Program-made: the position numbers and the translations under genes
Assembly: GCA_944320495.1 (NCBI GenBank)
Contig: CALUHR010000014.1
Coordinates: 1-50,526 of the forward strand
Reading direction: 5' to 3'
From: Candidatus Methanomethylophilaceae archaeon
Lineage (GTDB): Archaea > Thermoplasmatota > Thermoplasmata > Methanomassiliicoccales > Methanomethylophilaceae
Length of the DNA stretch: 50,526 bases
Notes under the pieces: model-generated
The model's database searches: none
The model's input: the letters and a program-made list of their open reading frames with translations, nothing else
What the model was told of the DNA's origin: nothing
Part shown: in pieces, positions 4,171 through 39,159 of the stretch
Numbering within the stretch: position 1 is the stretch's first letter
Layout: every line of letters begins with the position of its first letter

Positions 4171-5013
4171 ATGGAGATAGAGATTCTCGAAATGGCGGAG
4201 AGGAGGGCCAGGTTCATCCTGCGCAACTCGTCTCCCGCCATGGCGAACGCCCTCAGGAGGACGCTCCTCTCGGACATCCCCAAGATGGCGATCGACAAGG
4301 TGGAGTTCCACCTCGGTCCCATCATGGACGGCGAGAAGGAGTATGAGAGCATGACGCCCCTGTTCGATGAGATCATCGCCCACAGACTCGGCATGGTCCC
4401 GGTCCCCACGGACCTGGACCTGTTCGTACCCCAGGACCAGTGCACCTGCGGCGGCGAGGGCTGCCCGAACTGCTCCATCATGTACAGCCTGAACAAGCAC
4501 GGGCCGTGCACGGTGCTCTCGGGAGACCTCATGCCGCTGGGGAACCCAGACCTCAAGGTGAAGGACGAGTTCATCCCGCTGGTGGAGCTGACCGACGGCC
4601 AGGCCGTCATGATCTACGCCACCGCCGTGATGGGCACGGCCAAGAAGCACGTGAAGTGGCAGGTCTGCAACGGGGTCGGGTACTCGTACCTCCCCGTCAT
4701 AGACATCGACTCCGGCCGCGCCTCCGACGAGGCCGTGCTGGAGGCCGCCTCCGTGTGCCCCAAGCACGTCTACGCCGTCGAGGACGGGAAGCTCGTCGCC
4801 AAGGACCCCCTCGCATGCAACCTCTGCATGAGCTGCATCGAGAGGGTCGGCTCCGACCGCGGACTCAGCGTCCGCGGGGACGAGACGAACTTCATCTTCA
4901 AGTTCGAGACCGACGGCTCCCTCACCGCGAGGCAGGCGCTCGACAAGGCCGTGGAGATCCTCTCCAAGGAGGCCGACGAGTTCGCCGAGGGCATCGAGGC
5001 CCTGGCCCAGTGA
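4171..5013 (+). CDS. rpoD: DNA-directed RNA polymerase subunit D (Rpo3), with Fe-S domain
   Basis: Starts at ATG 4171 after GGGGTGA, inside ORF 3730..5013. ANALRR, DEIIAHRLGMVP, CPKHV...CNLCMSC and FKFETDGSL motifs. Confidence 0.95.
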   Translation: MEIEILEMAERRARFILRNSSPAMANALRRTLLSDIPKMAIDKVEFHLGPIMDGEKEYESMTPLFDEIIAHRLGMVPVPTDLDLFVPQDQCTCGGEGCPNCSIMYSLNKHGPCTVLSGDLMPLGNPDLKVKDEFIPLVELTDGQAVMIYATAVMGTAKKHVKWQVCNGVGYSYLPVIDIDSGRASDEAVLEAASVCPKHVYAVEDGKLVAKDPLACNLCMSCIERVGSDRGLSVRGDETNFIFKFETDGSLTARQALDKAVEILSKEADEFAEGIEALAQ

Positions 5014-5020
5014 AACTTCA

Positions 5021-5040
5021 GCCCGGCCTTCGGGCCGGGC
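5021..5040 (+). terminator. Hairpin after rpoD (GCCCGGCC-TTCG-GGCCGGGC)
   Basis: Perfect 8-bp stem with a cUUCGg tetraloop, 8 nt after the stop. Confidence 0.6.
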
Positions 5041-5075
5041 GACACCCCCTTATATCTCCCCGTATTCGGCGCCGC

Positions 5076-5981
5076 ATGAAGGTATGCCCCAAGTGCGGCC
5101 AGGTCACCAACGACGATTCCGACGAGTTCTGCATCAAGTGCGGAGCCTACTTCACGGATCAGAGGAAGGGTCCGTCCCAGCAGACCTCCGCGATCTCCGC
5201 CGCAATGGGCATGACCGCCCCCCATGTGAGGGAGGAGCCGGTCCCCGTCCCCGAAGGAGGGACACTGCAGGCCGGGATGGACGACATGTCCTCCGGGAAC
5301 TTCCCGGAGGGGGTGGCGCAGTGGACCTCGTGGGTAAGGTCCGCGGGGGAGCCCTCGGAGGTCGACTACCGCTCGATGGTGGTCTCCGCCTGCGACTGCA
5401 TCATGTCCACCGTGGGGGACGGCCAGGCCCACAGCCGCGCCGGGCTCGCGGAGCTGGCGATGGAGCTGGAGGCCGACCTCCTGCAGGACATGTCCGCGGA
5501 GCTGATGTCGAGGCTCGGAGGGCTGACGACCATGGTCCAGGCGGGCGACCTCGCCACCGAGTGCATGTACCTGGCGATGGAGGCCTTCAGCGTCTACCCA
5601 GACCTGAGGGACGTCCTCGAGGCCATGGAGGCGCTCCCCGGACAGATGGACGCGATCTCCGCCGCCTCCGCATCGATGGAGCCCGATGACGGGAGGGCTG
5701 CGAGGCTCACCGAGACCTACTCGTCCTACGCCCGCATGATGGACGGCGCGATGCGCACGGAGATCGGGAAGGCCGGCGACGAGAGGATGGACAGGCTCGC
5801 GGACTACTGGTCCTCCAAGGCCAGGCTCCCGTACGCCGACATAGCGTACCAGATCGCCAGTCTCCACACCCAGATCTTCGCGATGAAGAACGTCGGCAGG
5901 TTCGCCGGCAAGCTCCTCAAGAAGGGCCTCGACATGCAGATCGAGGGCTTCGTCAGGTCCTACTTCGGCCCCAAGGTGCGA
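5076..5981 (+). CDS. Zinc-ribbon-containing hypothetical protein (301 aa if CGA at 5979 is a stop)
   Basis: TTATAT at 5050, N-terminal CPKC...CIKC ribbon and host-like codon usage up to 5978. In the standard code it runs on to 7853 as antisense of polC. Confidence 0.8.
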
Positions 5982-8900
5982 TCGGAAGAAGTCCGACAGC
6001 TTGCACTTCTTGACCTTGTCGTTGTTGAAGACGGAGTCCATCGACATCTCCAGGAGCTCCACGCGCTCCTTGGTGTACTCGTCGAGCCCGTACTTCTCGC
6101 CGATGGTCTTGGAGATCTCCAGGTACTTCTTGACGGACGCCTCGTGGACGGTCAGCGTCAGCGCGTTGCCGCACTTGGTGCACTTCCCGGCCAGGGGCAT
6201 GCGCCTGTACTTCTCGCCGCACTTGGTGCATCTGACGGTCTGGGTGGAGAAGCTCCTCAGGTTCCCGATCATGTCCGGGAGGAAGTGCTTGTTCAGCACC
6301 CTGCGGGCGACGTCCTGCTCGTTGACGGCGCGGATCTTCTTCCCGAGCATGAGCTGGGCGTCCATCTTGTCCATCATGGTCTCCAGGGTGGTGTAGGCGG
6401 AGTACTTCGGACCCTCCGAGATGTCGCGGGTGTCGTGCGTGAAGCCCAGGTGCTCGTACTGGTCAGGGGTGCCGATCCTCCCCGCGATGAGGTCCATGAT
6501 CTTCTCGATCTCCTTCGGCTCCTTCATGTCCATCGCGGCGCGGTAGAGCTCGATGGGGTAGTGCCTGAGGCAGTCCACGTTGTGGGCCTCCTTGTCGATC
6601 TCGTTGGGGTCCAGCCTCGTCGTGAGGACCAGCGGCGCATCCATCTGGCCGCCCCTGCGGTCCGGGAGGAAGGTCTTGGAGAAGTTCAGCAGGCCGTCCA
6701 TGGCCAGGATGAGACAGTCCTCGTCGCCGTCGCAGTTCCTCCTCTTGGCGGCGTGGAAGAACGGGTGGCCGTAGCATCCGCGGACGTCGGCGTAGCCGAT
6801 GATCCTGCACAGGATGCATCCGGACGTGTGGGGCGCCAGGCCGAACACGATGTGGCCGATGAGGTCGAAGCGGTTCTGGACGTTGTAGTAGCGGGGCAGA
6901 TGGTACAGCCTCTCGAGCTCGTCGTCCAGGAACCTCGCGACCTTAACCAGGTAGTCCCCGCAGTCCTTGGCCGGTATGACGTCCTGCACCCTCAGCTCGC
7001 AGATCTGCTCGGGGTCCGTGAGCGGGTCGCCGTTCCAGTCGTGGGTGTAGCCGATCTCGTGGGCCTTCTCGATGCTCAGGCCGATCTCCCTGGGCTTGAA
7101 GTGGGTGATGGGGATGTCGGTCATGTCGAACCTGACCGTCCCGTCCTTGAAGCAGCTGATGCCGTTCTTCTGTCTCAGGATGCCCTTCTCGACGGCCTCG
7201 CAGGTCTTGGTCTTGGAGATGAGTGCGTCGAGGCACTTCAGCTCCGACGGGGGCCTCTCGCCGACCTGCTCGCAGGCGGCCTTGAACTCCTCCTCCAGGG
7301 GGATGCCGAGGGGCGCGGGGCCCATGTTGCCGAAGTCGTTCTGCCTCGGGACGTACTCCGTATGGGAGCCGCAGACCCTGCACCAGTTGCGGAAGGTGTA
7401 GTTCCTGCAGACGGGGCACAGCCTGTTGCCCACGTCCACGGTGACCTCCGGCTTGCCGCCCTTGCGGGATGCGGCGGAGGACCTGGCGGCGGCGATGGCG
7501 CTGTTCATCTCCCTGCCGGCGTCCGCGTCCTTGCCGACGGGGAACAGGGAATGGACCTTGGGGGTCATCTCGCGCTCCTTCGCCTTCTCCGGACGGCCCA
7601 TCCTGGTGCCGATGCGGGTCATGGCGCGGGCGCGGACCTCGTATCCGGTGGCCCTGCTGATGGCCTCCAGGGTGCTGGACCCCTCGAGTTCCGGTCCGGG
7701 TTCGAGACGGTCTCCGGCGACCTTCACGCCGAGGCAGTCCAGCATGGGCATGGAGTACACCTCGTCGATTACCAGGCGCCCGTCCCTGACGACGTGGAGG
7801 GCGCAGAGGTCCTCCAGCATGCGCTTCTGGACGGGGTCGTTGGCGACCGATAGGTTGACGCCGTCGTAGGACCCGGTGGCCAGCACGTGCTCCCTGAGGG
7901 ACCTGATCCTGTCCAGCTCCCAGTCGGACCAGAACAGGTTGAACTTGGGGTGGAGGGGCACGCCCATCGTGGCGCACATCTCCTTGGCGCGCTCGTAGGT
8001 GGGGTCGCGCCAGTCGGCCGGGAGCTCCCCCTTCTCCTTCAGCTCGAGCTCGTGCCACTCTATCGGGTATCCGCAGGGGACGAGAGTGTGGTTGTTCTCG
8101 CAGAACTCGCCGAAGGGGACGAGGATCTCGCCGTTGTCCACGATCTCGGAGATCTGGTCGTGGATCTCGATGGCCTGCTTGGCCGTGCCCACGTAGACGA
8201 GGTCGCCGTTCTTCAGCAGGACCGTCGGCCCCTCGAGCTGGTCGCAGGGCGTGACGACGGAGGCCTTGCCGGGCCTCTCGATCTTGAGCTGGGTGCCGAT
8301 GGCCATGAACTCGTCCATCACGTACATGGCGGGGACGCTGTAGGCCAGGGACGCCAGCCCGGAGGTGCGCGCCCTGCCGTATCTGAGCCTGAAGCCACCG
8401 ACGGCGCAGGGGTGCCCGAATATGGGGCGTCCGGCGACGATGTCCATGAGGTACTTCTCCTTGGGCTCGACCCTCTTGGGGGCGTCGCTGTTGGCGTCGG
8501 GCTTCTTGTCCGCCTTGTGGGCGTCCAGGTACTTGCCGATGAACTCCCATCCGGTCATGCCGAGCTTGTCGACGTGCTTCTTCAGCTTGGAGGCCTTCTG
8601 GCACATCCCCTCGGCGATGACCAGGCAGGCGCCTCCCCTGACGCGGTTGGTCTCGATCCTGGGGAGGTCCCTGAAGCCGGAGATCTCCATCGTCTCGGTG
8701 CCCTCGCCGTCGACGCAGACGGGGCAGTTCCTCACGATGAGGTCTATCTCCTCGGACGTCGGGGTGTACTGCAGGTGCTGGCACTGCTTGTAGAGGGGGA
8801 TCTCCTCGTCGAACCTGGCGATCTCGCCCTCGGTGGGGATGTACTTTCCTATGCCGAGCTCGGTCCTGACGACGTCCGCGATGAGGACGCTCATGGCCTG

Positions 8901-9371
8901 TCCGGTCCCCCCTGCGGCGCGGATGGGTCCGGCGAAGATCAGGTCCACGTAGGTGGAGCCGTCGGAGTTCCTGCCGATGCGCGTGTCCGCTATGCCCTCG
9001 AGCGGGGCGACCAGGATCCCCTCGGTGAGGACGGCGAGACCGACCCTCACGGCCCTGTCCAGGGCCTTCTCCTGGCTCTCGGCGGGGCGCTTGGCCATCT
9101 CCCTGGCGACCATCAGGGCCACGAGCTCGCGGTTCCCGAGCTCGGCCGTGAGGCGCCTGATGTCCTCGGCGACGCCCTCGACGTGGTAGTCCGCCAGGAG
9201 CTTCTCCACACGGGACGCGAGGTCCTCCGCCTGGGGGATCTCCACGTCGGTCATGGGGTCGAACCCCATGGACCTGGCCTTCCTGGCTATGTCGTAGCAC
9301 TCCTCGTTCTTCCTCGAGAGCTCCGAGAAGTACGCCTGCATCTCCTCGCTGCAGGCGGGGCCGCCGGTCAT
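5982..9371 (-). CDS. polC: DNA polymerase D large subunit DP2 (1129 aa if CGA at 5984-5982 is a stop)
   Basis: GPIRAAGGT, GRPIF, GGFRLRYGRARTSG, RIGTRMGRPEKA, AKRRNCDGDED, LTTRLDP.EID.EAHN and the C-terminal Zn site CTKC..CTKC. The acidic-hydrophobic tail KLSDFF is followed by CGA. The standard code reads on to 4770. Confidence 0.96.
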
Positions 9372-17837: not shown

Positions 17838-18812
17838 TCGCAGTTCCGGCACCGGTATGCGATGGAAGCCGAGCGTCTCCGTCCTTCCGGCGGCCGCGGC
17901 CACAAGTTCCGATATGTGCACCACCGGGAGGCCTCCCTCATAGGCGTCGTACTTCACATGGCACATGGGGCAGTCGACGACGATGACCTCCGCTCCGGAG
18001 CACTCCTCCTCGCGCATGGCCATCAGCTCCCCCGCGACAGGGGCGCTCTTGCCGCAGCAGCCCCACTCGCGGTTGACCACGCGGCAGTTCATCGCTTCGA
18101 GCACGGCCCTCATCTGCTTCGCCCTGGGGGCGGCGGAGCACCCGGGCTCCATCGCGACGGCGACCGTCCTCCCGAATCTGGGGAGGTCCCCGATCCTGGC
18201 GTCCAGGAACTGGATGAAGTCCACGGCCCCGTCGTCGACGGCGGAGAGCTCGTCGCTGCAGCCGGGGCATATGCACACTATGTCCCTGTCCCCCGCGCCC
18301 TCGCACATCTCCTTCTTGGCGTTGCGTCTCTCGTGACCGGTCATGCCGATGAACTGCACCGGGTGCAGACAGCACCCCTCGTCCGGAAGCGGGCACGGGC
18401 GCACCCCGACGGCGTCCATGGCGGCCGCCCCGGCGTGCTCCAGATAGGGAGCCTGGGCCCTGACCGTGCATCCCGACATGAGGCAGGCGTCCTGTCCCGT
18501 CCACTCGGGCTCGATCAAGCGGTCATCCGCGGGGGCGCGGGCGAAGCCCGTCTCCCTATAGGTGTCGGATACCGTCACCCCGCGTTCGATGGCGATGAGC
18601 ATCCTGATGACCGTGAATGGGTCGGACCTCCTGCAGATCTGCGAGCATGTGCCGCAGACGATGCACTGGTCCAGCCCCTCCTCCCCGCCGGCCATGATCT
18701 CCATGGGGTCGATCCCGCCGACGGCGCAGGACGGGCAGGCGGCGGTGCACCTGCCGCACAGTATGCACGTGCGCCTGATCCTGTCGATCTCCTGTGTAAG
18801 TGCGTGACTCAT
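17838..18812 (-). CDS. Fe-S protein with a 2x[4Fe-4S] domain and cysteine-rich CCG domains (HdrC/HdrB-like; 324 aa if CGA is a stop)
   Basis: CILCGRCTAACP, CIVCGTCSQIC, GCCLHP, CPGC, GCCG and DCPMC motifs. ATGA overlap with the mvk stop. Standard-code end is 17748. Confidence 0.8.
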
Positions 18813-21940: not shown

Positions 21941-22408
21941 ATGAAGACAGGATGGAAGGTGGCTGTGGCCATCGTGGCGGTCGTCGTGATCGTCGCGGTC
22001 ATCGCCGCAGTCGGGTCCGGCGACGATTCGCCGGAGGTCCGCTACGATTACGAGATCGAGGTGGCCGATTTGTTCACCTCGTCGAGCGGCTATGAGGAGA
22101 CGCCCTCGCCGGGCAATCAGTACGTCATCGTCACATGGACCGTGGCCAACGACTCCTACGGGGACGGGTTCCACACGAACGACCTGTTCTTCCAGGCCAA
22201 GGTCGTGGCCGGAGGGGTTGCGTACGGCACGAGCATCGACATGTACACGCATCCGGGATACCTCCTCGGTGATATCCTGGAGGGCGAGAGGGCGACGTTC
22301 GTCTACGTCTATGAGGTGCCAGCGGGCATTCCCGCCGAGGACCTTGATGTGCAGGTGCACTACGCGGACTTCGATCCGCCGTCCATGGAGAGGGACACGT
22401 CCCTCCGA
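21941..22408 (+). CDS. N-terminally membrane-anchored DUF4352-like (Ig-fold) protein
   Basis: Hydrophobic N-terminal helix, then P.PGNQYVIVTWTVAN and FVYVYEVP. CGA at 22406 lies two codons before TGA (22412-22414). A GGGGCC-GCGA-GGCCCC hairpin follows at 22421. Confidence 0.7.
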
Positions 22409-22441
22409 GGCTGAAACCCAGGGGCCGCGAGGCCCCGCTAT

Positions 22442-22867
22442 ATGCTGGTGTGGAGCGGCCCAGAGTCCCGGAAGAGGGCGGAGGCGGCCTGCATCTTGAG
22501 GCGTTTGAGCTCCGGCCTCGGGACGCCTGTGGACGATATGAACTGCCTATCCTTCCCGATGATGCGCAGCCCGAAGGGCGAGGTGCTGAGATCATGCTGT
22601 GGTCGCACAGCGAGGGCACGGTGTCTATACCGGCGGAAGTGCCCGTGCCGGCATGCTAGGGTATCTGTTCGGAGGGCAGATCTGTTGGTAATTGTGGACG
22701 AGGACACGCTCGGGTCCGAGCTGTTCAATGGGCCCAGACACTTCGAGAGTATTTGCCCGGATTTGAGGCAGATCAGGCTCCGTGTGGAGAGGAACAGAAG
22801 AGGTGGCTGCGTGCAGCTGCCCGGTCTGGAGAGGACGATATCTGGCAGGATGTCCTCAGACATTTGA
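22442..22867 (+). CDS. Hypothetical Cys/Arg-rich protein
   Basis: 141-aa ORF with many Arg codons and no CGA; convergent with the next gene. I recognise no homology. Confidence 0.35.
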   Translation: MLVWSGPESRKRAEAACILRRLSSGLGTPVDDMNCLSFPMMRSPKGEVLRSCCGRTARARCLYRRKCPCRHARVSVRRADLLVIVDEDTLGSELFNGPRHFESICPDLRQIRLRVERNRRGGCVQLPGLERTISGRMSSDI

Positions 22868-23071
22868 GCGGGTGTCGGGTCCGAGGGCAGGACGATCATC
22901 CTGAGGTTCCAGCGAATCGATCGACAGCTCGACGGAGAATCTGGCGCCGCAGGGGCAGGAATGGCATTCGAGATACGAGGAGACGGAGGGCTCTGTGTAC
23001 TTGAGAGAGGATGGGTCTAGCAGATGCCCGCATACAGGGCATTTGGATACGATAAACGAATCAAATGTCAT
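22856..23071 (-). CDS. Small zinc-ribbon protein
   Basis: CPVC...CHSCPC motif and an AT-rich upstream region; 71 aa. Confidence 0.55.
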   Translation of the reverse strand: MTFDSFIVSKCPVCGHLLDPSSLKYTEPSVSSYLECHSCPCGARFSVELSIDSLEPQDDRPALGPDTRSNV

Positions 23072-23337
23072 ATGATTGTTATATTGATATCGAATAGATA
23101 ATATTCACTCTAAATCGGTTATGTCAAATGCTGATATCCAATGTTGCCGAGTTAGAGTTTTAATGCTGTATATTGTACTTTTTTGTAATTCATATTTAAG
23201 TAGATTCTATGCTTTACGTCTAATAAAAGTTGTTTCAGAATATTTTTTGGTAACCTAAAAGAATTATTGAAATCGATATTGATTTTTGATTCCTAGAAAA
23301 CCGGCAGTTTAATACGATCTGCTTTGAAGTTACAATT

Positions 23338-23799
23338 ATGACCAAAATTGGCGAGTACGTTGGTGTCGAGCAGATTGTAGAAGAGGCAGGAGTCAAAAGT
23401 GCTGCAGGTTTGCAATGTGGTATTCTAGTAAACGACGATGACAAGAGAACTACACTAATCATAGCGTTGCCTGGAGTGGGCACTCCTAGATATCCAAACT
23501 ACTGGGATCAGAAAAAAATCGGTGTTCTCCACTACTGTGGTACAGACAAGGGGCAGTCCAAGTCTATTCCGAAACAAAACATCAATTCGAGATTGAACTC
23601 TGCAGTCAATACAGGGGTGTATCCGATACACGTGTACATTCGGCATCCGAATCACGTGTTTCGGTACATGGGTGAATTCATTCGGTGCAGAGAGTACGAT
23701 GAAGAGTTGGAAAACGGGGGCAAGATCATCTATCGTTTCGGGCTGATATCGAAGAATATCGATGTAATTGCTCCAATATTGAACAGTTATTTCAATCGA
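23338..23799 (+). CDS. Stand-alone SRA/PUA-like modified-base-binding domain (ScoMcrA/HNH-associated type; 153 aa if CGA is a stop)
   Basis: YPNYW....GVLHYCG..KG......N..L......PIHVY......FRYMGEF resembles SRA-like domains fused to HNH restriction nucleases. Standard-code end is 23907, overlapping vsr. Confidence 0.6.
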
Positions 23800-23872
23800 A
23801 ATTTCTCTACAATAGAGAAAGGCATAGAATCTGAATTTGGAAATACTCAAGAATTCATCATTAAGTCGAGAT

Positions 23873-24337
23873 ATGTCAAACAGGCCCGCAGATCCCCCAA
23901 TGTCTGATGGCGTCCGGAAGTGTATGAGATCCAACAGGTCCAAGGGAACAACCCCTGAGCTCAGAGTCAGAAGCGCTCTTCGTGAAGCAGGATATCCTGG
24001 ATACAGGCTGAATTGGAAAAAGGCTCCTGGTAAGCCAGATATATGCTATCCTGGAAGAAAAGTAGCGATATTTGTCAATGGATGCTTCTGGCACAGATGC
24101 CCGCACTGCAATCTCCCACTGCCAAAACACAATTCCGAATATTGGATCCCTAAGTTAGAACGTAATGTGGAGCGTGACCGCGAGCAGAGGCTTGAGCTCA
24201 ATAGTATGGGTTGGACAGTTGTTGACATTTGGGAGTGCGAGCTAAAGAGGGACTTTGAAGGGTCTGTGAATCATGCACTAGATGCTCTTCGTGAGGCGGA
24301 TTCAGGTATCAAATCATCTAAATCGTATTCTCAGTAA
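23873..24337 (+). CDS. vsr: Very short patch repair endonuclease
   Basis: MRSNRSKGTTPE, GKPDI, AIFVNGCFWHRCP and YWIPKLERNVERD motifs. Likely start is ATG 23873 (ORF track gives 23837). Confidence 0.93.
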   Translation: MSNRPADPPMSDGVRKCMRSNRSKGTTPELRVRSALREAGYPGYRLNWKKAPGKPDICYPGRKVAIFVNGCFWHRCPHCNLPLPKHNSEYWIPKLERNVERDREQRLELNSMGWTVVDIWECELKRDFEGSVNHALDALREADSGIKSSKSYSQ

Positions 24338-24379
24338 AGTAGTCTTAAGCCATCCTATAACATATTAGACAAAGATCAG

Positions 24380-25816
24380 ATGAGGGAAGTACAGTCTCCG
24401 CCAACTGCTGCGGCACTCATGGAATCCACTAGGTCCATTGGATATTCGTTTGACTCTGCAGTTGCGGATATTGTTGACAACAGCATAAGCGCTAATGCTA
24501 TGCATGTATGGATTAGGACGCTTCCTGACGATGACCCCTACCTGTCAATTCTAGACGATGGGGACGGCATGGACTCACAGGAGCTGTGCGAGGCGATGAG
24601 GTACGGCGTTAATCCCAATCTTGTCCGCGATCCAAACGACCTCGGGCGCTTCGGATTAGGGATGAAAATGGCATCCTTGTCTCAATGCAGGCGTCTAACC
24701 GTGGTATCTAAGACTAAAGACTCTCTTTCTGCGTGCAGATGGGATCTGGACCGCGTCATTGAGACAGATGAATGGACTTTACAGATTCTATCGGAAGAGG
24801 ATATCGTGGATGTTCCGATGTATGATGATCTCAAGGATCTCGATCATGGAACCCTGGTGGTCTGGCAGGATCTGGACAAGCTGAAGGAACGCTCAATCGA
24901 TATGCAGGATCTTATGACTGAAACTATCGCATCGTGCAGAAGTCATCTGAGTCTAGTCTTCCACAGATTTCTTGACTCGACGTACGGCGGTCGTTTGGAG
25001 ATGTTCATGAACGGCAGTGAGATAATGCCGTTGGACCCATTTCTTTCAAGAAACACGAAGGTTGCTCGTCTTCCGGAGCAGACAATGGAAATACAGGGGC
25101 AAACAGTGGTCATTAGACCGTTTGTCCTTCCTCCAGAGTCTACTCTGTCCAAGAGGGATGTAGAGCTAATGGGGGGAATGAAACGTAACCTTCAGGGGTT
25201 CTGGGTGTACAGAAACAAGAGACTCATAATTCCTGGAACGTGGTTCAGGCTTACTGGTAGCAAGGAGCTGACAAAGCTGGCTAGAGTGATGATTGACATA
25301 CCAAACACTCTTGACTCAATTTGGGATATTGATGTGAAGAAGTCATCTGCAATTGTTCCGGCACCGTTCCGTAGGGATTTTGAGAGTATTTTGGATCAGA
25401 TTCTGACGAAAAGTGAACGCAAGTACACCTACAGAGGTCGCAAGGCAAATGATGATTCCAAGACGTTCTTCTGGGACAAGATCGAAAAGAACGGTTCGTT
25501 ATCATATCAGGTAAATCTTAGTCATCCGCTGATTAGGCAGGGGATGGATCAGCTTGACGAAGAGTCCCGCGCCTGGTTTGAGAGAATAATAGCTCTTCTT
25601 GGCAGATCTTTGCCACTTGAGGATATCTTTGCATCTTTGGCAGGCAGATCTGAATGGCATTTAGGTGAGACGCGCGAGGAGACGGATCAGATCATTGGTA
25701 TGGGAATAGGTCTTTTGGAAATGGGCCTAAAGCTGGAGGATCTCATCATGATGGAGCCCTTCATTGGAAACAAGAAGGCACTGGATGCGTTAAGGAGATA
25801 CGAAAGGGGAGTATAA
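24380..25816 (+). CDS. mzaB: MORC/MutL-like GHKL ATPase (MzaB-like)
   Basis: AVADIVDNSI, ILDDG.GM, DLGRFGLGMKMASLS, QGFWVYRNKRLI and LARVMID motifs. Confidence 0.88.
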   Translation: MREVQSPPTAAALMESTRSIGYSFDSAVADIVDNSISANAMHVWIRTLPDDDPYLSILDDGDGMDSQELCEAMRYGVNPNLVRDPNDLGRFGLGMKMASLSQCRRLTVVSKTKDSLSACRWDLDRVIETDEWTLQILSEEDIVDVPMYDDLKDLDHGTLVVWQDLDKLKERSIDMQDLMTETIASCRSHLSLVFHRFLDSTYGGRLEMFMNGSEIMPLDPFLSRNTKVARLPEQTMEIQGQTVVIRPFVLPPESTLSKRDVELMGGMKRNLQGFWVYRNKRLIIPGTWFRLTGSKELTKLARVMIDIPNTLDSIWDIDVKKSSAIVPAPFRRDFESILDQILTKSERKYTYRGRKANDDSKTFFWDKIEKNGSLSYQVNLSHPLIRQGMDQLDEESRAWFERIIALLGRSLPLEDIFASLAGRSEWHLGETREETDQIIGMGIGLLEMGLKLEDLIMMEPFIGNKKALDALRRYERGV

Positions 25817-28602
25817 TGATGGACCAGAGCAAGATAGAGAATACAATCACAATCGTTCGTGCGCTAATTAATCAAAAATTCGGAGACGAGACTCCTTCTG
25901 AGTCAGACATTGTCAAGACGGTGATGAGTGTCAAAGATCTTGCAAATCTCACGGACGAGGAGGCAGAGGAGACGTCACGTCAGATTCTCAGCATCATGGG
26001 ACACTACATGGATGTGGGGGTCATGTTATCTTCTGAGCATAAGTCTTGGTACTACTCTCGTACCAAAGATGTGGATTTGCGTTTTACAAATCGTAATTTG
26101 AAATATCAGGATCAATACCGTCATCTTCCTCCTAAGGTAATTACTACTGTAGATCAGGTAACTAGCAGTATCATGGATCAGATAGCAGATCCAACCCAGG
26201 TTGGATCAAAACGTCTAGGACTGGTCATGGGGGATGTTCAGTCTGGAAAAACGAATACCTATACCACCCTGTGCTGTAAGGCGGCGGACATGGGTTATCG
26301 TGTGATCATTCTTCTAACAGGGACTCTTGAGATTCTACGCAAGCAGACGCAGGCGAGGCTGGATGAGGGTCTTGTAGGAAAGGACAGTGCCGCTTTCATA
26401 AAAAAGAAGGATAAGACCATCGGTGTAGGATACATCGATACCACACCAAGCATGGTTGTTTTTACCTCAACCGAAGGTGATTTCAATTCAAAGAAGGCCA
26501 CTGATCTGAATATCAGTGTGGACAATCTGAATGTTCCCCTGCTCCTGGTACTGAAGAAAAATAGCAAGGTTCTCAAGAATCTGAACCAATGGCTATCAGT
26601 CAACACCAGCAAAAGGATAGAGGCTCCTTTGCTTCTTATCGATGACGAGGCAGATAATGCATCGATAGACACATCTGGCAATGATCAAGAAGCTACTGCG
26701 GTGAACAGCTCTATCCGTGACATCTTAGGCATGTTTGTGACTTCCACGTACGTAGCCTTTACAGCCACTCCTTTCGCGAATATCTTTATTGATCCGGAAG
26801 CAGATGACGACCTGTATCCTCGGCATTTCATATACTGTCTCTCATCGCCGGACAATTACATAGGGCCTCAGTCGATGTATTCAGAATCGGGCAGATACAG
26901 ATCAATTCTGAGAATAATACCTGTGCTACCGGCGAGTGAGACTAGCAAGGGAGGTCTTGAGGAGCTTCCTTATGACCACTCCAAGGACTATGTGTTACAG
27001 AGCATCCCTCCGTCTCTGGAAGAAGCAATCAACTGTTTTCTTCTTTCCTGCGCGGTCAGGGATATCCGGGGTAATGAGCGGAATCATATGTCCATGCTTG
27101 TTAACATGAGCAGATTTACAAACGTCCAGAACTCAGTAAAGGAGTTGGTATACGACTATGTATACAATGTAAAACAGGCATTGGAGGCATATAGTTCTCT
27201 CCCAGAAAAAGAGGCACTCAAACACCGGACTATTAGTGGTCTAAAGCTTACATGGGACAGAGAATATTCTCACTTAGGTTACGAATGGCCAGTTATACAG
27301 CATCAGCTTTTCCAATCTGTAAAGCCGATAGATGTCAGAGCAGTTAATCAGACAAACGGTCCGAAGAATCTGAACTATGCAGATGCGTCTGATGGTCTCA
27401 GAGTAATAGCAGTTGGAGGAAACAGTCTTTCAAGAGGGCTCACGCTAGAAGGGTTGTGTGTCAGCTACTTCTACCGTCGTTCACAGACGTACGATACATT
27501 GATGCAGATGGGTCGCTGGTTCGGATACAGGGATGGTTATGACGATCTGTGCAGAGTCTGGATGACTGAGGAGAGCATAGAATGGTACGAAGGGATATGT
27601 GAAGCCACCGAGGAACTGAAATGGGAATTCAGGGTGATGTCGGACAGGGGCATGACGCCATCTGATTTCGGATTCCGTGTACGCAACAATGTGACCGGAC
27701 TTCTGATAACCGCTCGCAACAAGATGAGGTCTGCAGGCGAGAAGTACATTACAAAAAGAATAGATGCAACACCACTGTGGACATCCAGCATATATTATGA
27801 TGACGAGCACGTCAACAATAACAACAAGGCGGTCACAGAGCTCATAACGTGCATCGACAAAACAATTCCGAGATTTTACAATAAATCTACTGGAAATTGG
27901 GTATGGAGGAGAGTTCCTACTGAAGATATAGTGAAATTTCTGGACACATACATATTTCCAGAGGAAGAGAATGTGCTATTCGACAAGGAAGCAATTCTTG
28001 AAACTTTCAGCTCAGGAAAGTTTCCTCGCGAATGGGATGTAGCCATTCAGCACGGAGATAGCAACAGGACCTACGAAATCGAAGGAATCCAATTGGATCG
28101 TCCGATTAGATTGTCTGTTCGTAACAATGTGGTTATCAACAGAAGCAACGAAGGAGTTCTACGTTTCAAGAGTGCAGCACTTATGAGTTCTTCCAATATG
28201 CGTGAAGGAATATACACCATCAAAGACGGAGAGGAGGTGTATGATAGCAATAAAGTCGCTGAGCTTGAAAAGAACTATCGCAATCTTGTAAGAGATGAGA
28301 AGATACGTGAGGGCAAGGATCCGGACAAGGTTGCAGTTCCTCCCAAAGCGTATCTGATGACCACAGAGCGTCGTCCTATTCTGCTAATATATCCCATAGA
28401 AGTGAATGGAGACTGCCAGGGGGATGATGCAAAAGAAATAGCTGCTGTTCTTGGCGGGCTGCCCACAATAGGCGTGGCACTGGGATTCCCTGAAGTGGAG
28501 AATGCAAAGTCTGATGAGGCGTATGTCATACGTTACAAAACCACTGCTGTGTACAACAAACTTGGAGACAATCCAGATCTTGACGAGGAGGTGTACCAGT
28601 GA
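25816..28602 (+). CDS. mzaC: Z1-domain SF2-helicase-like endonuclease (MzaC-like)
   Basis: GLVMGDVQSGKT, IDDEADNAS, YVAFTATPFAN, HMSMLVN, GGNSLSRGLTLEGL and DTLMQMGRWFGYR motifs. Confidence 0.92.
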   Translation: MMDQSKIENTITIVRALINQKFGDETPSESDIVKTVMSVKDLANLTDEEAEETSRQILSIMGHYMDVGVMLSSEHKSWYYSRTKDVDLRFTNRNLKYQDQYRHLPPKVITTVDQVTSSIMDQIADPTQVGSKRLGLVMGDVQSGKTNTYTTLCCKAADMGYRVIILLTGTLEILRKQTQARLDEGLVGKDSAAFIKKKDKTIGVGYIDTTPSMVVFTSTEGDFNSKKATDLNISVDNLNVPLLLVLKKNSKVLKNLNQWLSVNTSKRIEAPLLLIDDEADNASIDTSGNDQEATAVNSSIRDILGMFVTSTYVAFTATPFANIFIDPEADDDLYPRHFIYCLSSPDNYIGPQSMYSESGRYRSILRIIPVLPASETSKGGLEELPYDHSKDYVLQSIPPSLEEAINCFLLSCAVRDIRGNERNHMSMLVNMSRFTNVQNSVKELVYDYVYNVKQALEAYSSLPEKEALKHRTISGLKLTWDREYSHLGYEWPVIQHQLFQSVKPIDVRAVNQTNGPKNLNYADASDGLRVIAVGGNSLSRGLTLEGLCVSYFYRRSQTYDTLMQMGRWFGYRDGYDDLCRVWMTEESIEWYEGICEATEELKWEFRVMSDRGMTPSDFGFRVRNNVTGLLITARNKMRSAGEKYITKRIDATPLWTSSIYYDDEHVNNNNKAVTELITCIDKTIPRFYNKSTGNWVWRRVPTEDIVKFLDTYIFPEEENVLFDKEAILETFSSGKFPREWDVAIQHGDSNRTYEIEGIQLDRPIRLSVRNNVVINRSNEGVLRFKSAALMSSSNMREGIYTIKDGEEVYDSNKVAELEKNYRNLVRDEKIREGKDPDKVAVPPKAYLMTTERRPILLIYPIEVNGDCQGDDAKEIAAVLGGLPTIGVALGFPEVENAKSDEAYVIRYKTTAVYNKLGDNPDLDEEVYQ

Positions 28603-29501
28603 GGGACATTGTGGCTGAGAGGCTCGGAGATAGTTTCTATCTTGCAGGATCACATCCGCTTAGATGGAGCTACAACAAGTCTCGTACCGCACTGATCCTT
28701 CAGACAGATGAAGAGCCAGATGTTCCACAGCGCTCTTCCAAGGCGGTAGCCCTACGCAAGTGGAGACAGGCAGATGGCAGATGGGCCATCGCATTCATTC
28801 TCATCGATGACAGCTACTCGGAGCAATTCAGATATTTCTGCGAGGATGTAGTGGAGTCTAGCAGATCCGTTCCTCTTGAGAAGGGCGCCAGCTTTGCATA
28901 CGGCAGATTCTCGTTATGGATGCGCATGTTTCGTCCGGTAGGAGGAAAGCTCTCTGAGGAGTCCATTCGCGGGCTTATGGGAGAAATATTCGCCATGCAA
29001 CGTGTTCTCATACCGAGATATGGCGAGATTGCCGTTCTCAAGGCATGGATGAATGCGCGTCGCGGAAAGCAGGACTTCGTGATGGAAGACAGCTGGTACG
29101 AGGTTAAATCCATCATGGAGGGGTCAGCAGGTGTCACTATAACATCGTTCGAGCAACTTGATAGGGATGATTCAGGAGGTCTTGTGGTTGTGCAGCTAAG
29201 AAAGACTAGTCCTGAATCTCCATTGGGTACGAACATAAACAAACTTATCCGCGAGTTTATAGACGGTCTGGAGTCAGCCGAGTCCAGAGATATTATGCTA
29301 GACACGCTGGAGCTGGCTGGATATAGCTATACGGATGAATACAACAGCCTGTGCTTCGATTGCTTGTCCCTGACTTTGTATGCGGTAGATGGCGATTTCC
29401 CTCGCATCAGGCGCTCTCATCTTGACGAGGGCATAGTGTGTGGTAGCTACGAGATATCCCTTGATTCTATCTCAGAGTGGCGGGTGGAAAGATGGAGTTG
29501 A
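28599..29501 (+). CDS. mzaD: PD-(D/E)XK DUF4420 protein (MzaD-like)
   Basis: RGLMGE, W......KQDF......YEVKS and ITSFEQL motifs; GTGA overlap with mzaC. Confidence 0.88.
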   Translation: MRDIVAERLGDSFYLAGSHPLRWSYNKSRTALILQTDEEPDVPQRSSKAVALRKWRQADGRWAIAFILIDDSYSEQFRYFCEDVVESSRSVPLEKGASFAYGRFSLWMRMFRPVGGKLSEESIRGLMGEIFAMQRVLIPRYGEIAVLKAWMNARRGKQDFVMEDSWYEVKSIMEGSAGVTITSFEQLDRDDSGGLVVVQLRKTSPESPLGTNINKLIREFIDGLESAESRDIMLDTLELAGYSYTDEYNSLCFDCLSLTLYAVDGDFPRIRRSHLDEGIVCGSYEISLDSISEWRVERWS

Positions 29502-31561
29502 ATGAGTACAGATCAGAGACGCTCCAGGACATCCGTCTGGGTGCTGTAGCGAACTCCAATTTCAGAAGAATTGAGTTTGTTGACCATGTGATGAGGATTC
29601 TTCAGGAGTCAGAGGAGGTTGATGACTACACCCTCTGCTATTATGACGGGATTATAGGATCACGCGGGAAGAGGGTGGAGATAGACGGGTATGATTTCGA
29701 TGATTACGATGGAACACTGACCCTCATTGTGTGTAGCTTTAACGGGACTGATATTCCAGGCGTCAGATTAACCAAGACGGATATCGATGGGATGGTCGAA
29801 AGGGCTAAGCGTTTCGCAGAGGGATCCATAGATGGTGTTGCAGAGGACAGCATCGAGGAAAGCGAGCAAGCGTATGAGCTCGCCAGATATATACGGCTGC
29901 TTAGTGAACAGGAGAAGATCAATAGGTACCGCATTCTTGTTCTATCAGACCTTGAGAAGAGCGATCGCATCAAGACGCTGGAGGTAGGTGAGATCGATTC
30001 AAAGGAAGTCCTGCTCAGAGTATGGGATATATCCAATCTGTTTGACCTGGAGGTGTCCCGGAGAGGCTTCGAGGATATCGAGATAGATCTCAAGGATTTT
30101 GGTGTGGATGGTATTCCATGCCTCAGAGCGTGCAGTTCAGGGGGCGAATCAGGATATGACGCATATCTCTGCGCGATTCCGGGAAGGCTTCTTTCCGACC
30201 TCTACGGAAAGTTCGGTAGTAGACTCATGGAGTCAAATGTCAGATCATTTCTGAAGCTTCAAACAAAGACCAACAAGGCAATCCGTTCAACCATTCTTAA
30301 AGAGCCTGAGATGTTTTTCGCATACAACAATGGGATCACAACCACTGCGACAGACATCTGCATTGACGAAACGCCCTCCGGCAAGGTCATTCGCGGATTC
30401 ACCGCACTCCAGATAGTCAATGGCGGGCAGACCACTGCCAGTATCTACACGGTGGGTAAGTCCAGGGACAAGCCAGATCTGGATCAGATATTCGTTCCCA
30501 TGAAGATCACGGTGATCTCCAGGGAGAGAGCAGAGGAAGTGGTTCCGCAGATCTCGCGCAGCGCAAATACGCAGAATAAGGTCAGTGAGGCGGATTTCTT
30601 CTCCAACAGCAAGTTTCACAAGAAGATGGAGGCGTTATCCAGAAGTGAGATGGCTCCACAGAGGCCAGGCATCCCGTACACCACAAGATGGTACTACGAG
30701 CGCACGCGTGGACAGTATCAACAGGATATCAACTCCAAAACTGGTACTGCCCTCTCGAAGTTCAAGATGGAGTATCCCAAGAGTCAGGTGTTCACCAAGA
30801 CTGATTTATCAAAGTATCGGAACAGCTATGATATGAAACCTCATGTTGTTAGCAGAGGGGCTCAATATAGTCTTGTCGAGTTCTCAAAGAGTATCGACGA
30901 GTCCCATATGGACAGCATCAATAGCCATTATTTCCACGAGACGGTAGCCTTGGCAATCTTGTTCCGTCGTATCCAAGACATGGTTTCGGATCAACCTTGG
31001 TACAACGGAGGCTACAGGGCGCAGATTGTTACATACACGATGGCCAAGCTTTCGCAGATGATTGGCGATATGGGAGGGGCTTTGGATCTGGAAAAAATCT
31101 GGAGCATGCAGGAGATTCCTTCTGAGCTTGAGAGGCAGCTGATTCCGATAATGGACTTGGTGAACACATCTATACTTATGGACAAGCGTGAGGAGAATGT
31201 TGCTCAGTGGTGTAAGAAGCCAGCTTGCTGGGAGTGTGTGAAAGGAAGGGCTATAGACCCGCTTCCAGAGCTCAGAACTTGTCTCATTTCAGAGGCCCGC
31301 TCAAAGTGGGATCGGAAGGTGGCAATTCGCAAGCAGAAGGATTCGGATCTGGTTCATGCGCTGATAGATGTTGTGAACTATGGTTCAGGTGCATGGGAGA
31401 AAGCAATGGAGTGGGGGGAGGAGCACGACTCTCTCAGCTGGGAGGACAAGGACCTTCTGAAAAAGGCTATGAGGTGTGACAAAAAGCGTCCGACGGAGAG
31501 GGAGGCGGTCGCCGTTATGAAGGTTCTGGAGAGACTCAGGCAGGACGGCTTTTCCAGATGA
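29492..31561 (+). CDS. mzaE: AIPR family protein (MzaE-like)
   Basis: LMESNVRSFL, FFAYNNGIT, QIVNGGQTTAS, ISRSANTQNKV and WYYERTRGQY motifs. Start is ATG 29492 (or 29477). Confidence 0.92.
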   Translation: MELNEYRSETLQDIRLGAVANSNFRRIEFVDHVMRILQESEEVDDYTLCYYDGIIGSRGKRVEIDGYDFDDYDGTLTLIVCSFNGTDIPGVRLTKTDIDGMVERAKRFAEGSIDGVAEDSIEESEQAYELARYIRLLSEQEKINRYRILVLSDLEKSDRIKTLEVGEIDSKEVLLRVWDISNLFDLEVSRRGFEDIEIDLKDFGVDGIPCLRACSSGGESGYDAYLCAIPGRLLSDLYGKFGSRLMESNVRSFLKLQTKTNKAIRSTILKEPEMFFAYNNGITTTATDICIDETPSGKVIRGFTALQIVNGGQTTASIYTVGKSRDKPDLDQIFVPMKITVISRERAEEVVPQISRSANTQNKVSEADFFSNSKFHKKMEALSRSEMAPQRPGIPYTTRWYYERTRGQYQQDINSKTGTALSKFKMEYPKSQVFTKTDLSKYRNSYDMKPHVVSRGAQYSLVEFSKSIDESHMDSINSHYFHETVALAILFRRIQDMVSDQPWYNGGYRAQIVTYTMAKLSQMIGDMGGALDLEKIWSMQEIPSELERQLIPIMDLVNTSILMDKREENVAQWCKKPACWECVKGRAIDPLPELRTCLISEARSKWDRKVAIRKQKDSDLVHALIDVVNYGSGAWEKAMEWGEEHDSLSWEDKDLLKKAMRCDKKRPTEREAVAVMKVLERLRQDGFSR

Positions 31562-32530
31562 TCAGATCGCCTTGACGATCTTCTTAGCCATCATCTCGAC
31601 TACGGGCACCGTTATAGAGTTGCCAATTTGCATGTACTGGTGACTTCTGGCCATATTTGAAGGGAACTGGATTCCTGTGAGGCCCTGAAATCCAAGACAC
31701 TCGTCGATAGTCAGTTTTCTGATGCCCCAGTCATCACGGATCATTGGTACGTTGTGCCCTCCACCGCCCATATTCGCTGTCAGTGCCGGGCATACTCCGC
31801 TCTTGTTCTCACGGACGTAGTACCTGCGATACTGGTAGACAACGCCCTGTTTTACAATGGACTCATTAAACTTGTCATAGAGCTTTGTATCCCAGGGGCG
31901 GATATAGTACGATTCATCCGCTTTTTCATCCGTGTGCAAGTATTCAGTGATCGGATCGTGTTTTTTCTTGACAGGTGGTTTGATGCATGGATTGCATCTA
32001 TTTTTGTCAAGTGCCACAATGTAAATGCGATTTCTATTGTGGGGAATGCTACAATAGTCCTTGGAGTTGAGGATGTACTGACTGTAGCTGTATCCTCTAG
32101 ATTCTATCTCGTGCCTTATGCGGGCTATCGTGTTACCGTTGTCAATGGTGTTTAGGCGACTAACATTCTCCAGAAATAGAGCTCTAGGCTTCCTTCCGTC
32201 ATCGGTAAGCTCGTCTAAGATGCGAGTTATCTCGAAAAACATGAGACCACGGCCCCTTGGATCGTCGAATCCTAATTGCATTCCCGCTTGTGAGAACGGC
32301 TGGCATGGGAATCCTCCGATCACAATATCCACGTCGTCCTGTATGGAGTTAGAATGTAGATTCACGATATCCTCCTCAAAAAGCGGGAAATCATGTGAGT
32401 TGCGATAGGTCTCGCAGGCATAGTGATCCTTTTCATTGGCGAGGCATATGTCGCATCCAGCATTGTTGAATGCTGTGCAAATGCCACCTATGCCAGCGAA
32501 CAGGCTAAGGACGCTGGGGCGGGAGTTCAT
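31562..32530 (-). CDS. dcm: DNA (cytosine-5)-methyltransferase
   Basis: Motif I SLFAGIGG, IV GGFPCQPFS, VI ENV and X QIGNS. Its stop abuts the AIPR stop in TGATCA (31559-31564). Confidence 0.95.
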   Translation of the reverse strand: MNSRPSVLSLFAGIGGICTAFNNAGCDICLANEKDHYACETYRNSHDFPLFEEDIVNLHSNSIQDDVDIVIGGFPCQPFSQAGMQLGFDDPRGRGLMFFEITRILDELTDDGRKPRALFLENVSRLNTIDNGNTIARIRHEIESRGYSYSQYILNSKDYCSIPHNRNRIYIVALDKNRCNPCIKPPVKKKHDPITEYLHTDEKADESYYIRPWDTKLYDKFNESIVKQGVVYQYRRYYVRENKSGVCPALTANMGGGGHNVPMIRDDWGIRKLTIDECLGFQGLTGIQFPSNMARSHQYMQIGNSITVPVVEMMAKKIVKAI

Positions 32531-32770
32531 GTTGTGTTACGACTCAAGCATACTAGTTTAATAAGGGATGCGTTCAACCAGAGACCGAGAATTTTAGTGT
32601 CGAGATCTTCGACAAGTCCGACTATTTCGCCAGATCAACTCTGAGTCGTCGCTTCGAGGCAAGTCCTGAGCAGGCTCAGGACCTCCGAATCCCATTACCG
32701 CACAAAGCGGAATTTCGGTTGCAAGGTCATGGAACAGGAATTACAACCTGGTTCGATGGACGTTGAAGAG

Positions 32771-33550
32771 TCAAGTCTCCGACATTTTTACCCCTGCAGT
32801 TTTCTCAAACTCACGGTTGTGAATCTGGAGATATTCGGGATTGGGAGCAATTTTCCTAACATGCAGAGTGGTGAATCCGTCGCACATGGTTCTGTAGATT
32901 TCGCGATTCATGTTTTCCTTCAGAACTGGAGCATAATGGATGCAGCGATCCTCATCCACAGTCATGAGGTGTCTGTCGAAGAGCGAATCGTGGAATGTGT
33001 TCAGGCAGAGGACGTTGTCAAGGCTGGTCTTCTGCTCATCTGTAGCGCATTGGCTCCATGGGACGATGTGGCTGCATCTCAGAATCTGCCGTTCCTTGAT
33101 GCCGGTGACGCTGCATCTGCTTCCAGCTTCGACGAGTAGTGTTCTGCGAAGGGAATCCTGTCCAATGCGTTGCCTGACCTGTCTGATCACATCTCCACCG
33201 TTAACGACCATGGGATCGTATTGGTCCTCCAGGAAGGTCATTTCCCTATAGTATCCGTTATTTTCCAATATGTTTGAGGCTAGTGTGAACATTTCGACTG
33301 GGTCATCCTGGAACATCTTCCAGATGCGTTCTACTTTGGGTCCTCCATGAGAAAAGCCCTTGCGCCCTGATTTCAGATATTCCTTATCGCATGCCGCATA
33401 ATTGCCCCATCTAAAATTGATGGAGCCTTCAGTACGGCCGGTTATTTCCATAAAGATGCGAATATCCTCTTTCTGTGTGCCTTGGGGATCGAGATACATG
33501 GCAAGAGCCAGAATCATCTCATCATCGGACCACGAGTCTCCATCAGCCAT
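32771..33550 (-). CDS. HNH endonuclease (HNH_2) with an N-terminal helical domain
   Basis: RIGQ..LR..LL.....CSVTG.....LRCSHIVPW.........DNVLCLNTFHDSLFDRHL; N-terminus WSDDEMILAL..Y. Confidence 0.88.
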   Translation of the reverse strand: MADGDSWSDDEMILALAMYLDPQGTQKEDIRIFMEITGRTEGSINFRWGNYAACDKEYLKSGRKGFSHGGPKVERIWKMFQDDPVEMFTLASNILENNGYYREMTFLEDQYDPMVVNGGDVIRQVRQRIGQDSLRRTLLVEAGSRCSVTGIKERQILRCSHIVPWSQCATDEQKTSLDNVLCLNTFHDSLFDRHLMTVDEDRCIHYAPVLKENMNREIYRTMCDGFTTLHVRKIAPNPEYLQIHNREFEKTAGVKMSET

Positions 33551-33655
33551 GATTTCTAATAAGGTGGGATACAGAATAACCTTCCGGACTTTGTGCTTCG
33601 ATTCGGGAAGCCGCTATTCCATAGTTACTATACAGGACAGCCATAGGGGGTCGAG

Positions 33656-38971: not shown

Positions 38972-39159
38972 ATCGAACACCTCCGCCTGAAGCGGTATAT
39001 GCCTGTGACTGTAAGAGCTTCTATAAGAACATTATCATAGAGGGGATGTCCCGGGGTATGTGAACGGACGGAGGTCGGCCGAGCGGATTCTGATTGTATT
39101 TGATTATATTCAATTGTACGAAATCAAGTTTTATTATGTTGCAATCGTATGAGGTGGTC

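Follow-up and report, generated by a model that had tools for sequence, protein, structure and literature searches.

The window analysed here is the whole of contig CALUHR010000014.1 (50,526 nucleotides) from Candidatus (Ca.) Methanomethylophilaceae archaeon, assembly GCA_944320495.1, a genome of 1.77 Mb in 14 contigs with 62% GC. Its subject is the junction at 5979-5984, where the gene for DP2, the large subunit of DNA polymerase D, meets a convergent gene for a zinc-ribbon protein, and where both genes appear to end on the codon CGA, ordinarily an arginine codon. The features at the junction are the following.

5076..5978, + strand: gene for a fast-evolving zinc-ribbon protein of 301 aa with an N-terminal CxxC...CxxC
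5979..5981, + strand: CGA ending the zinc-ribbon gene, in frame and directly 3' of ...SYFGPKV
5982..5984, − strand: CGA (TCG on the + strand) ending DP2, in frame and directly 3' of ...KCKLSDFF
5985..9371, − strand: DNA polymerase D large subunit DP2, 1129 aa, recognised by Pfam matches
4770..5981, − strand: apparent DP2 read-through frame under table 11, about 404 codons, not coding
5982..7853, + strand: apparent zinc-ribbon read-through frame under table 11, about 624 codons, not coding

On the + strand the zinc-ribbon gene runs ...TAC TTC GGC CCC AAG GTG and then CGA; on the − strand DP2 runs ...AAG CTG TCG GAC TTC TTC and then CGA. The two CGA triplets adjoin as CGATCG, so that the spacer between the convergent genes is zero. 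The hexamer as such is not over-represented in the window (22 occurrences versus 39 expected), and it is the in-frame position at 5979-5984 and not the count that exceeds chance. DP2 is full length: PolC_DP2_N, PolC_DP2_central and PolC_DP2_cat are each matched from end to end of the profile at E values of 1e-113 to 1e-142, and a zf-DPOE zinc finger (Pfam) lies C-terminal of them. Its 1129 codons include neither CGA nor CGG. The last residues, K-V-K-K-C-K-L-S-D-F-F, resemble the C-terminal PIP box (cPIP) of Pyrococcus abyssi DP2, which binds PCNA and primase (PMC7101311). For the zinc-ribbon protein, Pfam zinc-ribbon matches are weak and fall under the curated cut-offs.

Under table 11 the DP2 frame is open from 10076 down to 4770, adding 404 codons beyond ...KLSDFF that run antisense to two genes, the zinc-ribbon gene and the one at 4171-5013, and the zinc-ribbon frame stays open to 7853, antisense to DP2. 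A preliminary description of the window had anticipated most of this picture. The exact abutment of CGA and TCG that it reported reads so on both strands; the gains of about 400 aa (antisense to two genes) and about 620 aa (antisense to polC) that it calculated for the standard code are 404 and 624 codons; and its remark that no backup stop lies nearby agrees with next standard stops at those same distances. The short PIP-like tail (KLSDFF) that it ascribed to DP2 corresponds to the C-terminal PIP box of the Pyrococcus protein (PMC7101311).

Were CGA plain arginine here, both proteins would truly be extended or would end without a stop codon. The existence of a tRNA-Arg(UCG) gene speaks for this, yet the extensions are antisense to real genes, carry a non-coding score and are not conserved, the sequence after the DP2 CGA varying among species; a Pfam search of both read-through frames found no match in either. 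All other species end both proteins at the same residue, and an extension would bury the C-terminal PIP-like motif of DP2. We therefore regard plain arginine as very improbable. For AGA/AGG in human mitochondria, a frameshift to a hidden stop has been proposed. That model was tried at the present locus and rejected, as neither shifted frame at ...TTC CGA TCG... stops immediately.

A search of 30 relatives, in which the window's own genome is G000 and Ca. Methanoprimaticola sp. MG2 is G013, revealed that DP2 ends at the same aligned residue in all relatives compared, with these forms of the junction.

G018: CGATCG
G009: CGA and then TGT
G013: TGATCA
G014 and G002: TGATCG (DP2 on TGA, the facing gene on CGA)
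Remaining genomes: TGA plus other bases

Orthologues of the zinc-ribbon protein (24-97% identity) are collinear to the last residue, and their stop is CGA in G000, G018, G010, G002 and G014 and TGA in G009, G013, G017, G011, G004 and G006. All four combinations of CGA and TGA at the two facing stops are thus found among species. In a second survey, restricted to one genome per GTDB species, 65 DP2 ends were readable: 57 on TGA, two on TAA and six on CGA. The six CGA-ended species come from separate projects, two of them also have CGATCG, and all fall in a group at ≥86% identity that comprises Ca. Methanoprimaticola hominis Mx06, Ca. Methanoprimaticola sp. MG2, UBA71, UBA480, UBA537 and many metagenome-assembled genomes from human gut and ruminants. 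As aligned, these ends show that TGA and CGA have interchanged repeatedly at the two stops. The TGATCA that the preliminary description expected in relatives is present in G013, M. hominis Mx06 and others, alongside mixed TGATCG and CGA followed by other bases. A scan of metagenomes for the exact DP2 tail returned eight contigs, all with TGA, although the window's own genome was perhaps outside that scan.

The recurrence of CGA among species bears directly on whether it is genuine. A TGATCA could have been miscalled symmetrically as CGATCG at a methylated GATC, an alternative that the preliminary description had itself raised as a read error at a modified site; the change is indeed symmetric within the GATC palindrome, and a dcm-type methylase is encoded in the window. 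TGATCA is not depleted (20 in the window versus 17 expected), and seven assemblies produced by different studies share CGA at this stop, each with species-specific flanks. CGA stops followed by varied other bases are common, and a sequencing or assembly error cannot strip CGA from the interiors of genes. This alternative can be set aside as having a negligible chance of being correct.

To describe the behaviour of CGA across the genome we used a codon log-odds score, trained on long frames with high GC at third codon positions, and asked for each codon how often coding-like sequence upstream was followed by non-coding-like sequence downstream. After CGA this was so in 114 of 120 instances (95%); for the other codons the maximum was 12.5%, and most lay at 2-6%. 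In a repeat of the analysis that let each stop count as sense, one at a time, CGA (122/129) was more stop-like than TGA (186/244). Coding-like genes end on TGA 884 times, on CGA 253 times, on TAA 32 times and on TAG 31 times, which gives CGA a share of about 21%. Beyond a CGA end the next standard stop lies at a median distance of 25 codons, and at least 50 codons away in 38% of cases; no enrichment of backup stops was seen after CGA ends in CGA-ended frames genome-wide. These terminators have a characteristic context: T occupies −1 in 5% of them and +4 in 57% (versus 30% after TGA). In-frame CGA followed by coding-like sequence was met only six times: in four of these the downstream sequence is the next gene in the same frame, and the other two are the gene for the release factor aRF1 and the junction between GmhA and GmhB, to which we return. 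Within the window the codon-score model also marks three further candidate CGA terminators.

17838..17840, − strand: gene 17838-18812, 30 codons to the next standard stop
40624..40626, + strand: gene 39154-40626, 45 codons to the next standard stop
41694..41696, − strand: gene 41694-42923, 102 codons to the next standard stop

Termination at CGA, which the preliminary description had proposed for both genes of the junction, is strongly supported by position, composition and comparison between species.

The same counts weigh on the possibility that the code is standard and that C-to-U editing of the mRNA turns a terminal CGA into UGA. CGA is a single C/T change away from TGA, the main stop, and such editing is compatible with the DNA data; in plant organelles some stops are created in this way, although we know of no mRNA C-to-U editing in archaea. 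Editing would be blind to frame, yet only in-frame CGA has been purged; out of frame, CGA/TCG triplets are plentiful, at 97,784 genome-wide and 279 in the defence island described below. Editing would also have to recognise each of over 250 sites whose flanks vary, and the changes in tRNA and aRF1 and the conserved CGA of the aRF1 gene, all described next, would go unexplained. We judge editing to be quite improbable.

The genome encodes five arginine tRNAs (ARAGORN), one of them with anticodon UCG. Orthologues of this tRNA were recovered by covariance model and their anticodon arms compared. Five outgroup genomes have a canonical 5-bp anticodon stem closed by C31-G39. In contrast, 12 higher-GC genus members carry a 31:39 mismatch (A/A, C/A or U/C) while retaining the other four stem pairs through compensatory changes, and four lower-GC members have the loop CCUCGAC, which places C at position 33, where U is universal in tRNA anticodon loops. 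The anticodon arm is accordingly aberrant in all 16 genus genomes in which the gene was found. The 31:39 pair is kept in tRNA-Arg(GCG) and tRNA-Arg(CCG). From these arms we would suppose that tRNA-Arg(UCG) has been weakened, presumably, and not lost.

Each genome encodes one aRF1, plus Pelota; a second, specialised aRF1 was considered and rejected on that count. We aligned aRF1 to human eRF1 (offset +3) and compared the genus with twelve outgroups. The genus differs from all twelve at human F56 (Gln), V66 (Thr), R68 (Met), E115 (Asn/His) and T122 (Ala), changes that flank the NIKS and YxCxxxF motifs; in addition, G31 of the GTS loop is Ser in G000 and G018. Their location suggests, as an inference, that these substitutions are linked to the reading of CGA. 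The aRF1 gene is itself one of the two exceptions named above.

G000:C2:85942-87135 (locus L041:1495-2724), − strand: aRF1 gene with an in-frame CGA at Arg78, in the context GCU CGA CUC

Exactly one in-frame CGA is present per aRF1 gene in 15 of 15 genus genomes, and in 14 of these it encodes the same Arg, in a ...SIAxRLK... segment 17 residues after NIKS. G005 has Lys at this site, and its single CGA falls at another conserved Arg, Arg25, just before the GTS loop. Outgroups use AGG, AGA, CGC, CGG or CGT at the same Arg and never CGA. The context is always NCU CGA CUN, opposite to that of the CGA terminators, while nearby synonymous sites drift; GCU and UCU are rare codons in the window's genome. 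The frame is continuous through the CGA, with no +1 frameshift, and a search for conserved RNA structure 3' of it (RNAalifold) gave only a weak fold of −9.75 kcal/mol and no covariation.

As a control outside the genus we counted codons in aRF1 genes. In sister families these genes hold 29 CGAs, 17 of them in columns with Arg in all 27 sequences; by this measure CGA is ordinary arginine there.

Genes that end in CGA are poorly adapted in codon usage, with a median codon adaptation of 0.52 versus 0.64 for TGA-ended genes (Mann-Whitney p 3e-24). CGA ends only two of the 120 best-adapted genes (top decile) but 109 of the 300 genes in the bottom quarter, and DP2 is one of the few well-adapted genes with this ending. 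Low adaptation agrees with a signal that is newer, weaker or more costly and that T-to-C mutation spreads under lax selection. It is also what a costly ending would predict if CGA were a 'hungry', effectively unassigned codon, at which the crippled tRNA-Arg(UCG) stalls ribosomes without true recognition of CGA by aRF1, and from which they are rescued by aPelota/ABCE1 with peptidyl-tRNA hydrolase or by unspecific action of aRF1. The tRNA is aberrant in every genus member, as such stalling would have it, and aRF1 would not have to tell CGA from CAA/CAG. Nevertheless, about 21% of genes, essential DP2 included, depend on a CGA ending, and selection for backup stops was not seen. The genus-specific changes of aRF1 fall at codon-reading motifs, and the specially placed in-frame CGA of its gene is best understood if aRF1 acts on CGA. 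We assign stalling without recognition a small probability, though not a trivial one.

With good confidence, we favour the reading that CGA is a stop codon in this organism and in its genus (Ca. Methanoprimaticola / UBA71-type Methanomassiliicoccales) and that changes in aRF1 and tRNA probably account for its being read as one. As to mechanism, we infer that aRF1 reads CGA in competition with the weakened tRNA. Each of the two convergent genes would end on its own CGA, DP2 at the PIP-like ...KLSDFF and the zinc-ribbon protein at ...YFGPKV. The single aRF1, altered beside the codon-reading motifs NIKS and YxCxxxF, would accept CGA besides UGA/UAA, and transitions from TGA to CGA would have accumulated through mutation and drift, chiefly in genes with weak expression. 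The residual activity of tRNA-Arg(UCG) could then act as a suppressor of natural origin at a small number of programmed sites. By analogy, the in-frame CGA of the aRF1 gene suggests autoregulation of the RF2 kind, achieved by read-through: abundant aRF1 would terminate on its own message, and when aRF1 is scarce the weak tRNA would read through and yield more of the full-length protein.

The other exceptional site may be a second programmed one.

G000:C13:193621-194718 (locus L082:622-1719), − strand: GmhA and GmhB frames joined by CGA

No separate start codon for GmhB follows the CGA. The junction codon is CGA in ten species, TAG in G017 and AGA in G016 and G012; it is AAA, a plain fusion, in two outgroups, and G005 and G007 have separate overlapping genes. 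From these alignments the CGA looks like a candidate leaky stop that would fix the ratio of the two products. The RefSeq assembly of Ca. Methanoprimaticola sp. MG2 (G013), at 218x coverage, has the full set of features described for the genus. The fuller proposition, that the genus has four working stop signals, that CGA was captured by the altered aRF1, and that the tRNA-Arg(UCG) suppressor sets both the level of aRF1 and the ratio of GmhA to GmhA-GmhB, strikes us as evenly poised between right and wrong.

Several observations count against reading CGA as a genus-wide stop. The genome still has a gene for a tRNA with anticodon UCG, and compensatory changes maintain the stem of that tRNA, from which it follows that some Arg decoding of CGA must persist. 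It is hard to see how C could be accepted at the first position of CGA without CAA/CAG, common Gln codons, being read as well. The genome-wide counts come from our own simple codon-score model and not from a trained gene finder. Lastly, CGA terminators are few in the low-GC members, which leaves the age and completeness of the change uncertain, and the complete, lower-GC genome G015 has an in-frame CGA inside a conserved 445-codon HTH/TPR-like frame.

G015, C1:200001-300000, offset 3574 of the reverse complement, − strand: internal CGA; the alignment with the G000 homologue extends to either side of it, with Ser in G000 at this position

CGA may therefore still be sense, or be read through, in the G015 subclade. 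In 20-100 kb samples of genus members the CGA share of gene ends ranges from about 1% to 34%, with no simple tie to GC; CGA and CGG are both nearly absent from the low-GC members. In four of these (G005, G007, G008 and G015) a homology check of CGA-ended frames was noisy, antisense frames giving matches too. Given the low-GC members, CGA termination may extend to the whole genus or to a part of it.

A defence island of 45-51% GC occupies 22000-34000 of the window and includes the following genes.

24380-25816: HATPase_c_3 protein
25816-28602: Z1-domain protein
29477-31561, + strand: AIPR
31562-32530, − strand: C5 DNA methylase (dcm)

The last two meet at a TGATCA at 31559-31564, and this counterpart to the DP2 junction, mentioned in the preliminary description, is real. 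The 3,288 codons of the island include 234 Arg codons of five kinds and not one CGA, while out of frame there are 279 CGA/TCG triplets. For an island of foreign composition this may mean that the donor shares the code or that the island has been purged of CGA. Elsewhere on the contig, tRNA-Leu(CAA) at 2371-2458 is the sole tRNA.

Convergent junctions with zero spacer, of the form YGA-TCR, number 21 in the genome: eight CGATCG, 12 mixed and one TGATCA (examples at C3:57417, C5:30886 and C13:91302). The frequency of CGA at them is far above its 21% share, for which the preference for T at +4 offers only a partial account. In-frame TAG followed by coding-like sequence occurs in methylamine-methyltransferase-like genes and a few others (among the sites C3:56642, C3:153732 (−) and C6:9627 (−)), which fits pyrrolysine decoding. 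We also noted several contigs of the Methanoprimaticola type in public bins that bear the names of bacteria, among them Bacteroides ovatus, Dialister hominis, Prevotella hominis and Lachnospiraceae (mislabelled record titles at loci L210-L213, L222, L225, L229, L230 and L232, GenBank CAV... records).

A change from sense to stop has so far been accepted only in organelles. If true of a cellular genome, it would mean that the set of stops can grow, by way of an ambiguous stage in which the tRNA is still present, and it would provide a natural test case for first-base recognition in stop codons by factors of the eRF1 type. The table-11 annotation of these methanogens of the human and livestock gut would be wrong for roughly one fifth of genes, with proteins extended or fused and antisense genes suppressed, and the errors would pass into protein databases, pangenomes and models of metabolism. 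To the large code screens, whose inference is confined to amino acids, the change is invisible. The locus at 5979-5984 makes a compact test site: one amplicon of 100 bp takes in the ends of two genes that lack a backup stop, one of them coding for an essential protein whose C-terminal motif is known.

Within the literature that could be searched, CGA is described as a stop for no free-living organism, and no paper mentions such a role in Methanoprimaticola. The nearest precedents for sense-to-stop change are organellar: AGA/AGG in vertebrate mitochondria (table 2), UCA in Scenedesmus (table 22) and UUA in Thraustochytrium (table 23). Further organelle variants of this kind have been described in Sphaeropleales (PMC6821328). 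As in those reassignments, the sense codon is gone from gene interiors and is located where homologues have standard stops. The organelle cases, however, concern tiny genomes of about a dozen genes, with release factors of the bacterial type; here we are dealing with a free-living archaeon with a genome of about 1.8 Mb, one aRF1 and about 250 affected genes, in which the altered cognate tRNA is kept and CGA joins the existing stops and replaces none of them.

Bacterial prfB, which encodes RF2, is autoregulated through an in-frame UGA and a +1 frameshift. The aRF1 gene resembles it in being a release-factor gene with one lineage-conserved in-frame codon on which its product would terminate, so that full length needs recoding. 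It differs in that the frame is unchanged, recoding would consist of read-through by tRNA-Arg(UCG), and there is no Shine-Dalgarno-like stimulator. By this analogy the aRF1 case may work like the RF2 feedback while standing outside the class of that mechanism.

Blastocrithidia nonstop and Condylostoma combine a mutant eRF1 with a tRNA whose anticodon stem has 4 bp, a stem that raises near-cognate reading, and in them a stop became sense (Kachale et al. 2023, as cited in PMC13092985). The likeness lies in a code change accompanied by eRF1/aRF1 substitutions and by the loss of one pair from a tRNA anticodon stem; the difference is that here sense became stop and that the altered tRNA is the cognate one, presumably weakened.

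Two further comparisons lie within the archaea. In two assemblies from hydrothermal vents, CGG has been reassigned to Trp, CGA is absent from recognisable domains and a possible role as stop was raised for it; these genomes have about 50% GC and no tRNA(UCG), and the stop role of CGA was left untested there (bioRxiv 10.64898/2026.04.02.715157). The present organism belongs to another lineage, in which CGG stays Arg and tRNA(UCG) is present, and use of CGA as terminator is supported by position and orthology. In Methanomassiliicoccales, TAG is read as pyrrolysine, up to a code in which all TAG is pyrrolysine (bioRxiv 10.1101/2024.09.30.615893). That case concerns the same archaeal order, whose set of stop codons was shifting already, and methyltransferase genes of the window's genome likewise contain in-frame TAG; it runs from stop to sense, and the preprint makes no mention of CGA (bioRxiv 10.1101/2024.09.30.615893), whereas the change proposed here runs from sense to stop.

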